Positions 4,531 through 7,200 of a stretch of 21,890 bases of DNA are shown in pieces. Origin of the DNA: a virus (taxonomy: Duplodnaviria; Heunggongvirae; Uroviricota; Caudoviricetes); the IMG/VR virus record IMGVR_UViG_2529293041_000014; one strand, written 5' to 3'. Position 1 is the stretch's first letter. Each line of letters starts with the position of its first letter. Position numbers and translations under genes: made by a program. The notes below the pieces were generated by a model. The model searched no databases. It saw nothing but the letters and a program-made list of their open reading frames with translations, and was not told the origin of the DNA.

Positions 4531-4589
4531 TAAAAACGGCGGCAGAGCAGTCACGGAGTAAAACTGATACCGCCAAACGTCACCAGAAA
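4531..4589 (-). ncRNA. dicF: DicF small regulatory RNA (Hfq-dependent; targets ftsZ mRNA among others)
   Basis: Minus-strand sequence UUUCUGGUGACGUUUGGCGGUAUCAGUUUUACUCCGUGACUGCUCUGCCGCC followed by a U-tract matches the known 53-nt DicF; correct position and orientation upstream of dicB. Confidence 0.8.
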
Positions 4590-4920
4590 ATTGATAACAG
4601 AGGGCGTTGCAGCGGGGTTGTCGCTTAAGCGTATGGTCAACCTGACAACCCGGTGTCCTCAACGGGGAAGGAATAACCCCGCCATACTTACCGCCGCGCC
4701 ATTTCGCGGAGTGCCACAACCGGAAGCGCACGGTCGAACTAAATTTAACGACACCGTACAGAGAGACCAATTTCGCCGTGCGCTTTCGCGTTATGCCCTG
4801 ACTTTTCAGGGACATATCCTTTCAGTAAACTGTCAGTGCCGGATGTTCACCCGTGTCCGGCGCACGCACTCCACCTGACCCGTGGAGAACTCCTTAATTA
4901 CCAACCCTCAGGAGGGTGAA

Positions 4921-5199
4921 ATGGATAAAAAGCAAATTGAGGCCCTGCAATCTATTATTGAAAAACAAGATGAAGCTATCAGGATTCTTTCATATCGCAC
5001 TGATATGATACTAAATATGCTTTCTGCATTAACGGCTGCGCTTGGTGGTACAAAAACAAACGTATACCGCGAAGTTGTTATTCAACAGATAGATAAATTT
5101 GAAAAAACCATACCAGGTATTAATGCTCATCTTGCAGAACAAGAGAAAGACCATGCTCTTATGGCAATTTCTTCAGTAGCTCTCCCGAAAGTTGAGTAG
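4921..5199 (+). CDS. Hypothetical protein (92 aa, predicted helical), encoded antisense to the surrounding leftward early operon
   Basis: ORF with a near-ideal RBS (AGGAGG, 6-nt spacer, ATG at 4921); no recognisable motif; convergent 41-nt overlap with the 3' end of the 5159-5572 gene. Confidence 0.45.
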   Translation: MDKKQIEALQSIIEKQDEAIRILSYRTDMILNMLSALTAALGGTKTNVYREVVIQQIDKFEKTIPGINAHLAEQEKDHALMAISSVALPKVE

Positions 5200-5572
5200 T
5201 TTTAATTGTTGTTTTGAAATAATCACTGCTTTCACATTTGAGTGATTTCATGGCAATCCAAATGCGGGCCTCTGTGCCTGCATTTGGTTCCAGTTGCTGT
5301 AGACGTTTTGCGTCTTCCAAAAGTAAGGCGATAATGTGTTTCAGCTTCTCATCATTTGCTTGATTCTTGTTTTCAGGCGAATTCTGTCCGCCGAATAGGC
5401 GCTTCTCTTCATACAGACCTATAAAGGCACGACGCACGTTACCGGATATAGTATCGATGGTTTCTTTTTCTACGGTACTCAGGTCAAGAGTCGCCAGTTG
5501 AGAGCGAACCACATTCGATGCCATTTCCTGGAATGGTACTGGTAAATCTTTAAATTCCATCGTCAACCTCAT
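5159..5572 (-). CDS. Hypothetical prophage early protein (137 aa)
   Basis: ORF in the leftward operon; its ATG overlaps the stop of the upstream YdfA-like gene by 1 nt (TGATG coupling); no recognised domain. Confidence 0.5.
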   Translation of the reverse strand: MRLTMEFKDLPVPFQEMASNVVRSQLATLDLSTVEKETIDTISGNVRRAFIGLYEEKRLFGGQNSPENKNQANDEKLKHIIALLLEDAKRLQQLEPNAGTEARIWIAMKSLKCESSDYFKTTIKTTQLSGELLKKLP

Positions 5573-5724
5573 CAGTCAGTGTTTCTGGTTAACCAGCGAC
5601 GCGCGCCAGCTTCAGTTTTAAACGTTTTGCTTCTGGTATACGTCATCGCGGTAAACGTGCCGTCCTGGTTGGGGAACACGCCACATACCAGAGATTCGTT
5701 GTTGCCAAGATTGAGCATATCCAT
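5572..5724 (-). CDS. Small YdfA-like protein (DUF1391-type), 50 aa
   Basis: Internal Met of the 77-aa ORF with GAGGT RBS; translation MDMLNLGNNESLVCGVFPNQDGTFTAMTYTRSKTFKTEAGARRWLTRNTD resembles K-12 YdfA as far as I recall; first gene downstream of the OL-like operators. Confidence 0.5.
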   Translation of the reverse strand: MDMLNLGNNESLVCGVFPNQDGTFTAMTYTRSKTFKTEAGARRWLTRNTD

Positions 5725-5910
5725 GTTGACCTCATTTCCCCTTAACGCCGGGGTAGCGGAACAAAAACCTGCTGCATAGTTATTAAAGTTGAACCCTGCC
5801 GTCATGTTCTTACGCCTCGGGCTGGCTACTTAACCCCTGACCACTGCCTGGTAACTCGAAGTATTGCCCTGCATTCTGTGGGGCGGGGTGGGTTGGTATG
5901 AAAAGAAGGA

Positions 5911-5947
5911 TACCCATAGGTATTTAAAAGGTAAATACCCATGGGTA
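5911..5947. promoter_or_regulatory. OL-like operator pair: two 12-bp TACC-N4-GGTA palindromes 25 bp apart, downstream of the repressor gene and upstream of the leftward early operon
   Basis: tacccataggta (5911-5922) and the perfect palindrome tacccatgggta (5936-5947); the same half-site recurs in the repressor/cro intergenic region. Confidence 0.45.
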
Positions 5948-5989
5948 AATTTTTGCGGGGTCTTAACTGGTGACTAGTTGTTTGGTGAG

Positions 5990-6409
5990 CTATGATGCGT
6001 TTTGTGCTTTCTTTTTACGGATTTCTTCGTAGATCATATTGTAATACTGTTTTTTCTCTTCAAGAGTTTTTAATAATTTATCCGCTTCACTTTCTGGCAG
6101 TTCGTCTAAGAGATCTAAAAAAATACGTTGTCGTGGCGTTAGAACCCTTGTTTCATAACTGGAGGCTGTGTTCGTTGATGATGAAACGATACCATCCATC
6201 CATCCCCGGGGTAACCCAAAGGACTCTTCGATAATCTCCACCATATCATCAGCGATCCGTTTTTTTCCCTTTTTCCCCTCTGGGTACAACATTCTTGATA
6301 CATAAGAAGGCTCGCGCCCGATCTTTCTGGCCACGTTAACCGCTTTACCATCGCATTTCTCATCACGAATTTTGATGAGTTGCTGTCGTCTAAATTCATA
6401 TTTGTCCAT
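5990..6409 (-). CDS. Phage repressor, cI/DicA-like HTH protein
   Basis: 139-aa ORF divergent from a Cro-like gene; C-terminal segment LDLLDELPESEADKLLKTLEEKKQYYNMIYEEI resembles the DicA C-terminus (LELFNALPESEQD...); flanked on both sides by operator-like palindromes. Confidence 0.7.
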   Translation of the reverse strand: MDKYEFRRQQLIKIRDEKCDGKAVNVARKIGREPSYVSRMLYPEGKKGKKRIADDMVEIIEESFGLPRGWMDGIVSSSTNTASSYETRVLTPRQRIFLDLLDELPESEADKLLKTLEEKKQYYNMIYEEIRKKKAQNAS

Positions 6410-6477
6410 AGGTAAATAATAGATGCGATTACCGCAAGGTAAACAACCTGTGGGTATTGACTTTTGTTTACCTGCGG
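6404..6477. promoter_or_regulatory. OR-like divergent promoter/operator region between repressor and cro-like gene
   Basis: Repeated TACC-N4-GGTA-type sites (taccgcaaggta at 6430-6441; degenerate copies gtccataggta at 6404-6415 and tacctgcgggtg near 6466-6477) in the 100-bp divergent intergenic region. Confidence 0.45.
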
Positions 6478-6509
6478 GTGTTCTTTGCTGTGTTTACTAA
6501 GGAGTAGCT

Positions 6510-6791
6510 ATGGAAGAATTAAGAATATTTCTCAATTCTCTTTCGTCAGATGAACAGCGTATGTTTGCATGCGAGTGTGGTACCAGCATCGGTTATCTAA
6601 GAAAGGCATTGAGTAAAGGTCAAGTGTTAGGGGCATCGTTATGTGTCCTTATTGAGCGAGCCAGTAATGGTGAAGTTACACGTCAGCAACTAAGGCCTTT
6701 TGATTGGATGAATATTTGGCCCGAGCTGGAAGATACCAAAACGTTAACACAACCACTTTCTAGGAGCTTGATTCATGAAAATCAAGCATGA
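6510..6791 (+). CDS. Cro/YdaS-like small transcriptional regulator
   Basis: 93-aa ORF with AAGGAG RBS, divergent from the repressor gene, followed by ydaT; position and size typical of a cro analogue. Confidence 0.6.
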   Translation: MEELRIFLNSLSSDEQRMFACECGTSIGYLRKALSKGQVLGASLCVLIERASNGEVTRQQLRPFDWMNIWPELEDTKTLTQPLSRSLIHENQA

Positions 6792-7200
6792 ACACATCCG
6801 CATGGCGATGAATGTCTGGGCGCATCCGGACGGCGAAAAAGTGCCGGCTGCGAAAATTACCAAAGCGTATTTCGAGCTGGGAATGACGTTCCCGGAACTG
6901 TATGACGACAGCCATCCGGAAGCCCTGGCCCGTAATACCCAGAAAATTTTCCGTTGGCTGGATAAAGACACCCCTGATGCTGTTGAAAAAATGCAGGCTC
7001 TGTTACCGGCGATCGAAAAGGCGATGCCGCCTTTGCTGGTGGCCCGTATGCGCAGCCACAGTTCTGAATATTACCGTGAGATCGTCGAACGGAGGGATCG
7101 GCTGGTGAAGGATGTCGATGATTTTGTTGCGTCAGCGGTTGTTTTGTATGACCAGATGAATCGCGGCGGCCCGGCAGGGAATGCTGTGGTGATGCACTAA
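6775..7200 (+). CDS. ydaT: YdaT-family protein (toxin YdaT-like)
   Basis: 141-aa ORF; N-terminus MKIKHEHI and C-terminal half (...IEKAMPPLLVARMRSHSSEYYREIVERRDRLVKDVDDF...) match the Rac YdaT family as I recall it; 17-nt overlap with the cro-like gene. Confidence 0.65.
   Translation: MKIKHEHIRMAMNVWAHPDGEKVPAAKITKAYFELGMTFPELYDDSHPEALARNTQKIFRWLDKDTPDAVEKMQALLPAIEKAMPPLLVARMRSHSSEYYREIVERRDRLVKDVDDFVASAVVLYDQMNRGGPAGNAVVMH

Follow-up and report, generated by a model that had tools for sequence, protein, structure and literature searches.

The two clusters of TACC-N4-GGTA palindromes that flank a repressor gene in IMG/VR virus record IMGVR_UViG_2529293041_000014 (21,890 nucleotides of DNA, hereafter the window) are very probably the operators of that repressor. 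The gene encodes a protein of 139 amino acids (aa) on the minus strand (5990-6409), and the sites form a left operator (OL), repressor, right operator (OR) and cro switch laid out as in lambda; a probability of about 0.88 is assigned to this reading. It is strongly supported by sequence comparison, namely by the fixed positions of the sites in 41 related loci, by the absence of the motif from loci whose repressor has a changed predicted recognition helix, and by the boundary of an exchangeable segment that encloses both clusters. The lambda-like layout had been proposed in a first-pass annotation of the same DNA. It stands insofar as operators lie on both sides of the gene, OL heads the leftward operon and OR is located between the divergent genes; it has to be amended in that OL contains two sites rather than the three of lambda, and the repressor has no S24 peptidase domain.

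The operator motif in the window and in related loci

By searching the whole 21.9-kb window for TACCNNNNGGTA (TACC-N4-GGTA) and comparing the counts with 100 shuffles, the density of the motif along the DNA can be assessed. Three exact copies are found where 0.19 is expected, none of the 100 shuffles reaches three, and all three copies adjoin the open reading frame (ORF) of the repressor; the motif, which the first-pass annotation had put forward for such a search, is thus not spread evenly over the window. Copies with one mismatch number 10 against 4.55 expected. Five of the 10 sites at this level fall within 5911-6480, and the remaining five are dispersed at the chance rate. In an unbiased scan for 4-mer inverted repeats with gaps of 0-11, TACC/N4/GGTA is the only type common to both intergenic flanks of the gene.

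On the left, the promoter-proximal site OL1 (5911-5922, TACCCATAGGTA) and the distal site OL2 (5936-5947, TACCCATGGGTA, a perfect palindrome) are both exact and lie 25 bp apart, 43 nt past the repressor stop codon. The coordinates and sequences given earlier for these two palindromes downstream of the repressor gene are correct. On the right, the 100-bp gap between the divergent repressor and cro genes contains three sites, where the annotation had spoken of related copies. OR3 (6430-6441, TACCGCAAGGTA) is exact and is located 32 bp upstream of the repressor ATG, and two one-mismatch copies complete the triplet: OR2 (6445-6456, AACCTGTGGGTA, or TACCCACAGGTT in the repressor orientation), 47 bp upstream of the ATG, and OR1 (6469-6480, TACCTGCGGGTG), at -71. 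The OR1-OR2 spacing is 24 bp.

For comparison, 41 loci that encode the DNA-binding domain of the repressor (245.7 kb in all) were collected from Enterobacterales, Aeromonas, Neisseria, Burkholderiales, Nitrosomonadales and Xanthomonadales; with the isolated coliphage mEp043, they make up the 42 related loci referred to below. The 41 loci contain 114 exact TACC-N4-GGTA sites, against 3.7 expected from base composition. More than half of these (59) are located in a 71-bp stretch from -90 to -20 of the repressor ATG, for the most part at -73/-72 and -33/-32. Of the others, 54 are found beyond the start of the gene on its downstream side, and only one elsewhere upstream. Among the downstream sites, 44 form 22 exact-exact pairs 24-27 bp apart, most of them spaced 25 or 26 bp. 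The OR sites of the family lie approximately 73, 48 and 33 bp upstream of the ATG, close to the -71, -47 and -32 of the window. The -32/-33 site, the counterpart of OR3, is exact in 22 loci. Most loci also have the third site, at -48, whose repressor-proximal half is degenerate in essentially every one (GGTT, GGGA or GGTC in the repressor orientation) and reads GGTT in the window. Across the family, the centre of the site is YRYR, and a flanking T and A lengthen the palindrome to 14 bp. A degenerate copy at 6403-6414 (TGTCCATAGGTA), which overlaps the start codon of the repressor and has two mismatches in its half-sites, had been counted among the candidate operators. It has no counterpart at that position in the 42 related loci and was rejected as a fourth OR site.

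The same geometry is seen in mEp043, whose cI/cro gap carries TACCTGTAGGTA, TACCCATAGGTT and TACCGGCAGGTA, and where TACCTATAGGTA and TACCTGTAGGTA lie 25 bp apart upstream of N. An extra conserved element, TTACC-N14-GGTAA followed by ACT(T/C)T, is located approximately 25 nt upstream of OL2 in mEp043, Pantoea, Dryocola and others (locus L003, 3540-3575; L011, L013, L016 and L022). It represents either the same half-sites at another spacing or a small hairpin, and is not present in the window.

The third line of evidence comes from mosaic boundaries. The prophage is a Qin/Rac-like lambdoid prophage of Escherichia coli carrying dicBF, and its immunity module spans 5894-6762: homology to phage Tritos, read directly from the sequence, ends at 5893 and resumes near 6763, and Tritos and several other coliphages match the flanks only. 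Both palindrome clusters therefore lie within the exchangeable immunity segment. The repressor of the heteroimmune Tritos has the same C-terminal domain and another helix-turn-helix (HTH) domain, and a different 13-mer, ATGTACTAAAAGT, is common to both of its flanks; judged by these sequences, Tritos has the same architecture with a different specificity. None of the isolated phages matched carries the whole module, the matches being to the flanks, and tblastn finds the DNA-binding domain in 12 records.

Within E. coli, the 630-bp module is present at a coverage of at least 80% in 822 of 5426 complete genomes (approximately 15%), including O157, O111 and O103 strains. In a set of 14 E. coli copies, variation is seen at 9 of 20 positions in the operator centres, against 3 of 40 in the half-sites and 8 of 420 in the repressor coding sequence. 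The centres at 5915-5918, 5940-5943, 6449-6452 and 6473-6476 are the most variable positions of the module (approximately 12% for other intergenic DNA), which may reflect affinity tuning or mutational hot spots. In addition, E. coli JNEC-KY180 (locus L050) has a 24-nt tandem expansion of a TGGTTGTT unit just downstream of the repressor stop codon, at the equivalent of approximately 5974.

The repressor and the protein that reads the sites

The repressor gene is identified by its ORF, by a match to phrog_5736 (transcriptional regulator, 6e-70), by its homologues and by its predicted structure. The protein comprises an XRE-like HTH domain (residues ~1-75), a disordered linker (77-87) and a DicA-like helical hairpin (92-138). 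In the AlphaFold model (pLDDT, the model's confidence score, 84.7), the N-terminal helices span residues 3-18, 23-30, 34-40 and 54-63, and the C-terminus forms the helical hairpin. The best Foldseek matches in the PDB are XRE/lambda-repressor-like HTH proteins, namely Rep of Salmonella phage SPC32H, the controller C-proteins of restriction-modification systems and HigA. No Pfam family, HTH and S24 included, matches the repressor at E <= 0.01. A sequence search of the PDB gave nothing significant, and its best hit, the Z-alpha domain of ADAR1 (E = 0.08), was taken as chance.

The two parts of the protein have different relatives. The match to DicA of the E. coli K-12 prophage Qin covers 46 aa at the C-terminus (33% identity, 61% positives, E = 2e-7); this part also matches the "CI" of phage Tritos, and in BLASTP against DicA, no N-terminal stretch is aligned. 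The earlier description of the repressor as DicA-like consequently applies to the C-terminal ~46 aa and not to the N-terminal domain. Over the N-terminal ~75 aa, the identity to the corresponding part of many S24-peptidase (PF00717) repressors of 221-242 aa is 65-80%, and mEp043 cI is among these N-terminal homologues (65% identity over 86 aa). Aligned with 19 family members, the DNA-binding domain shows 65-84% identity and 26 invariant columns, and the repressor carries the family signature MDKYE...REPSYVSRMLYPEGK.GKKRIADDM...LPRGWMDG. A relationship to RacR was also considered and dropped, as the best BLASTP E value was 2.3 and no similarity was detected. By these alignments, the repressor is a domain chimera, composed of an HTH domain from the mEp043 cI family and a C-terminal domain of the DicA type; the latter is presumably the dimerisation domain.

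The ~75-aa DNA-binding domain (window 5990-6409; proteins P0031-P0118) has no Pfam family of its own. Its C-terminal partners include the DicA-like hairpin, two divergent S24 (PF00717) groups and other tails (P0108, P0117), which indicates domain shuffling around a constant operator specificity. The RefSeq annotation of the repressor is inconsistent: it appears as a "phage repressor protein" with a short start of 114 aa in locus L001 (7191-7535), as a "hypothetical protein" of 139 aa in most genomes and as a 157-aa protein in UMNK88. The 139-aa start is favoured by the PHROG profile and the family alignment.

All motif-bearing loci keep the predicted recognition helix SYV[STLIG][RQ]M, which reads SYVSRM in most of them. 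In the three loci with an altered helix, L025 (SYVNRIFY), L041 (ASISHMLY) and L045 (ATISHLLL), no motif site is found and other palindromes are present. In the two Advenella loci L041 and L045, these include, 40-70 bp upstream of the ATG, ATACCGC-N8-GCGGTAT and an imperfect ATACCG-N10-CGGTGT, respectively; these loci may keep the TACC/GGTA half-sites at an N12 spacing. Four Klebsiella loci (L006, L009, L010 and L012) have the repressor domain and the upstream sites without a Cro homologue, with an OL pair in L006, L010 and L012 and a single downstream site in L009. Their right operator is of a variant design, in which the -73 and -33 sites are kept and OR2 is replaced by TTTGCTATATTTT. Based on the sites in the Cro-less Klebsiella loci and the loss of the motif with the change of helix, the motif follows the repressor domain.

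These observations bear on the question of whether the palindromes belong to the YdaS-like Cro, or to some other co-inherited factor, with the 139-aa protein binding something else. In 35 of the 42 related loci, a Cro homologue is encoded next to the sites, so that the two proteins are for the most part not distinguished by the comparative signal. To our knowledge, both proteins share their operators in every studied lambdoid switch, which makes binding by Cro more an addition than a competing account. The footprints of YdaS and PaaR2 overlap in CP-933P (PMC8630535). Against a set of sites that serves Cro in place of the repressor stand the four Klebsiella loci, three of them with the downstream pair, as well as the fact that the motif is lost in step with the repressor's own predicted recognition helix. 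We give this alternative hardly any credence, and recognition by the repressor is the reading retained here.

Predicted promoters, the left hairpin and the proposed circuit

By placing the sites on predicted promoter elements, a common arrangement on the two sides of the gene can be discerned. The predicted promoter pL, an analogue of dicBp, lies on the minus strand at 5907-5935, with a -35 element TTTACC (5935-5930), a 17-nt spacer and a -10 element TATCCT (5912-5907). It is proposed by analogy with the family, in which OL2 is followed by TTGACn, 7 nt, and OL1 with TAnnnT; the OL pair with an internal -35 element is found in 29 related loci, and the window has TTTACC in place of the family TTGACn. 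OL2 abuts the predicted -35, and OL1 fills the predicted spacer, its final TA beginning the -10, at the same position relative to the two elements as in the 29 loci. On the other side, the predicted pR is located at 6457-6484 on the plus strand, with TTGACT (6457-6462), a 16-nt spacer and TGTTCT (6479-6484); OR2 abuts its -35, and OR1 lies within its spacer and -10. In the family, a TTGAC/T box abutting OR2 is conserved throughout, a TTGAC box also abuts OL2, and the -10 starts in the TA of OR1 and of OL1. pL and pR would hence share one design as judged by sequence, with the distal site directly next to the -35 and the proximal one occupying the spacer and reaching into the -10.

The predicted promoter of the repressor gene, pRM, is located at 6416-6443 on the minus strand, with a -35 element TTTACC (6443-6438), a 16-nt spacer and a -10 element TATTAT (6421-6416). 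OR3 overlaps its -35 and spacer. It is the only promoter-like match of a consensus scanner in 5500-6900, where pL and pR remain under the threshold. Read in the repressor orientation, the family likewise has a TTTACC that overlaps OR3 and, 5-7 nt ahead of the ATG, a conserved TAnAAT box. OR2 and OR1 are centred at -41.5 and -65.5 from the predicted pRM start, which we take to be the positions of OR2 and OR1 in lambda; lambda CI activates pRM from an OR2 centred at -41.5. In the window, the repressor ATG follows the pRM -10 by 7 nt, and a leaderless repressor mRNA is therefore predicted. Transcription is expected to start at 6409 (minus strand) for pRM, near 5900 (minus strand) for pL and near 6491 (plus strand) for pR. 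Such mRNAs have been reported for lambda cI and for paaR2 (PMC8630535).

Several points weigh against the operator reading. The promoters are consensus readings, with 8 of 12 consensus bases for pL and only 3 of 6 for the -10 of the window pR. One half-site of OR1 is imperfect in the window (GGTG), and the centres of OR2 and OR3 are separated by only 15 bp, which places these sites on opposite faces of the helix, unlike in lambda (23 bp). The occupancy logic may accordingly differ from that of lambda. In addition, repressor and Cro are co-inherited in most loci, as described above, and are mostly inseparable as binders, and the left pair could also plausibly act as an RNA hairpin.

The hairpin (5901-5947, minus strand) is composed of OL2, OL1 and the TTTA/TAAA ends of the spacer. 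On the repressor strand, a terminator scanner reports a stem of 16 pairs with a 5-nt loop, followed by TCCTTCTTTT, and the fold of a 101-nt segment has a free energy of -22.9 kcal/mol (z = -4.2; 1 of 200 shuffles as stable). Measured against the features of an intrinsic terminator, the 16-bp stem and the UCCUUCUUUU that follows it are placed 43 nt after the stop codon, but the base of the stem is AU-rich, only five pairs are G-C and the U-tract is interrupted. Nine relatives with OL near the repressor stop codon all have a separate GC-rich terminator directly after it; no such terminator is found in the window module, in which alone the stem is extended by TTTA/TAAA. These features raise the possibility that the left pair is foremost an intrinsic terminator of the pRM transcript, which shields the toxic dicBF operon, and that its role as an operator is secondary or absent. 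The changes among the 14 E. coli copies, one compensatory pair (CACG in OL1 with CGTG in OL2, in L049), one wobble and one break (in L050), are too few to decide.

Two copies of any palindrome always pair with each other, and therefore the hairpin alone proves nothing. Moreover, the pair, its 24-27-bp spacing and the internal TTGAC box are kept in loci where they lie 400-2200 bp from the repressor gene and termination of its transcript is impossible, and complementarity of the centres is not kept family-wide. Termination is unlikely to be the sole function of the pair, and it is very improbable that termination comes first and the operator role is secondary or absent. A combined function, in which the same 37 bp of OL1/OL2 doubles as operator DNA for pL and as an RNA terminator of pRM read-through into dicBF, replacing the missing terminator of the immunity module, is proposed only tentatively, and we consider it somewhat doubtful.

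The circuit that we infer, including repressor binding, the promoter elements, activation from OR2, dimerisation and the route of induction, would work as follows. Repressor dimers would bind 12-14-bp palindromes with the consensus T-TACC-YRYR-GGTA-A at the five sites, and S35, Y36 and R39 of the N-terminal domain dimer would read TACC on TTACCCATGGGTAA. OR1 and OR2 would bracket pR, from which cro (ydaS), ydaT and the replication genes would be expressed. Similarly, OL1 and OL2 would bracket pL, the promoter of the operon running from the ydfA-like gene through DicF and DicB to exo, xis and int. OR3 overlaps pRM and would mediate negative autoregulation of the repressor, and repressor bound at OR2 would activate pRM, as its centre at -41.5 suggests. 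The YdaS-like Cro probably uses the same sites, and YdaT bound at its operator OM (6768-6785) would provide a CII-like establishment input. As the repressor has no S24 domain, induction would be unlike that of lambda and would not proceed by RecA-mediated self-cleavage. A tblastn search found no homologue of the Qin antirepressor Rem in the window.

A further question is whether this circuit is still active in the window. Base 6480 is G here and A, giving a perfect GGTA, in 12 of the 13 other E. coli copies. With the G, OR1 is altered at its final base and the predicted pR -10 at its second (TATTCT to TGTTCT), and pR may be weakened in this copy. The same G, next to another operator centre, is found in strain ETEC4068 (L055), suggesting that the change is recurrent. 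The 56-mer 6457-6512 has no exact match in complete E. coli genomes, and the nearest genome over 641 bp differs at three positions (6480, 5930 and 5959), all of which fall in the two regulatory gaps and leave the repressor gene unchanged. Half-site changes occur in other copies (OR3, C to T in three; OL2, T to C in one), and an IS66 element lies downstream of Q. On these grounds, the sites could be genuine operators of the family in a cryptic prophage whose switch has decayed, with pR inactivated and the layout a relic. However, the repressor, cro and ydaT reading frames are intact, as are pRM, OR2, OR3, OL1 and OL2, so that repression of the dicBF operon would persist, and a weaker pR leaves the operator function in place. 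Decay of the switch in this copy is considered unlikely.

Prophage context, related switches and significance

The genes around the operators are those of a lambdoid prophage. To the right of the repressor, the Cro equivalent is a YdaS-like HTH protein of 93 aa (6510-6791, plus strand), which matches phrog_35 and, at 25.8 bits and E 9e-6, Pfam YdaS_toxin, below the gathering score of 30. It is followed by the YdaT-like CII equivalent (6775-7200, plus strand; 141 aa), which matches Pfam YdaT_toxin and phrog_163 (CII-like) and is 31% identical to K-12 YdaT. The YdaT operator OM is an exact TTGATTCATGAAAATCAA at 6768-6785 in the cro/ydaT junction; it spans the ydaT start codon and is the only exact match in the window. 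This site was defined by footprinting at the same ydaS/ydaT junction in CP-933P (PMC9986795). It lies just inside the point where the homology to heteroimmune phages resumes.

The leftward operon under pL starts with a stretch on the minus strand (4537-5805) that contains a DUF1391 gene (ydfA/ydaF-like; Pfam DUF1391; 5572-5805), a 137-aa ORF (5159-5572) and the small RNA DicF (4537-4588; Rfam, 72.5 bits). dicB, an exonuclease gene, xis and int are located further left, dicB being annotated in the near-identical locus L001. To the right lie genes for RusA, a DUF968 protein and Q, together with a sok RNA, two tRNAs and an IS66 insertion. The sok antitoxin RNA (12181-12356; Rfam RF01794, 117 bits) points to a hok/sok module within the prophage, which Qin likewise has. 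After the Q antiterminator gene (14370-15059) come the two tRNAs (15255-15327 and 15421-15494) and, in the late-gene region (window 15255-18238), a complete IS66-family element with three ORFs on the minus strand (15623-17194, 17214-17561 and 17561-18238).

With lambda, the module shares the divergent repressor and cro genes, the three-site OR over pR and pRM, the second operator set at pL and a CII-type establishment factor, here the YdaT-like ORF with OM near the cro/cII junction. It differs in that the operator of lambda is 17 bp and that of the window the 12-bp TACC-N4-GGTA, in having a Cro of the YdaS type and a CII of the YdaT type, and in the absence of rex genes, pL directly following the repressor gene. 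The dicC-dicA-dicBp region of Qin likewise has a short non-cleavable repressor (135 aa, against 139 aa here) with a homologous C-terminal domain, and there too, the repressor gene directly precedes the operator-controlled promoter of a DUF1391-...-DicF-DicB operon. An OR/OL operator set has been reported for DicA in Qin, and derepression of dicBp is RecA-independent and can be driven by the antirepressor Rem (bioRxiv 10.1101/2023.04.14.536235). Unlike in Qin, the Cro here is of the YdaS type and not DicC; the N-terminal DNA-binding domains have no similarity detectable by BLASTP, and the intergenic regions of Qin show other palindromes.

CP-933P, of E. coli O157:H7, also has a lambdoid switch (paaR2/ydaS/ydaT) with YdaS as Cro, YdaT as CII and an identical OM site, and its OR and its PL/OL set beyond the repressor operon have been mapped by footprinting and reporters (PMC8630535). 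Its operators, in contrast, are 18-bp repeats with the consensus half GTTTAGTAA, and its repressor operon includes a toxin-antitoxin pair. In Rac of E. coli K-12, the order of repressor (racR), ydaS, ydaT and replication genes is the same, ydaF (DUF1391) lies leftward and YdaT is the K-12 homologue compared above, whereas RacR has no detectable similarity to the repressor and YdaS matches over 28 aa only.

The closest counterpart in specificity is mEp043. Besides the 65% identical DNA-binding domain, its Cro is 73% identical to that of the window, and the motif and geometry are the same, with three OR sites and two OL sites 25 bp apart. Its cI, by contrast, is 228 aa long and is placed in the S24 class by close alignment to P0114, one of the 221-242-aa PF00717 homologues, rather than by a direct scan of cI; mEp043 also has an N gene of the lambda type, and its cI operon is separated from OL by a dedicated terminator. 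Judged from sequence, the layout is thus closest to those of Qin and CP-933P, and the DNA-binding domain, Cro and operators are of the uncharacterised mEp043 immunity type. Judging by titles and the openings of abstracts, no paper describing the mEp043 operators was found. Literature searches with TACCNNNNGGTA-type strings, with concrete operator sequences (unrelated primer matches only) and with RefSeq protein accessions likewise found no description of the present operators, which is weak evidence that none exists.

The lambda paradigm is unchanged by these results; the module is a new, well-supported and unsurprising example of the classic genetic switch. What is gained is a base-level map of five operators, three predicted promoters and one CII-type site in a module that is present in 822 of 5426 complete E. 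coli genomes and controls the cell-division inhibitors DicF and DicB. In addition, a family of DNA-binding domains outside Pfam is defined. Its members, which range from Enterobacterales to Neisseria, Burkholderiales and Xanthomonadales, share the operator half-sites and the site geometry, and the C-terminal domains attached to them are of at least three kinds. Several predictions follow: phages that are SOS-inducible and phages that are not should be cross-immune, repressor mRNAs should lack a leader, and one element may serve as both operator and terminator. The domain-swapped repressor, which is SOS-insensitive, shares its operator specificity with the S24-type repressors of the mEp043 family, and it could thereby provide uninducible cross-immunity against phages with such repressors in approximately 15% of complete E. 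coli genomes.

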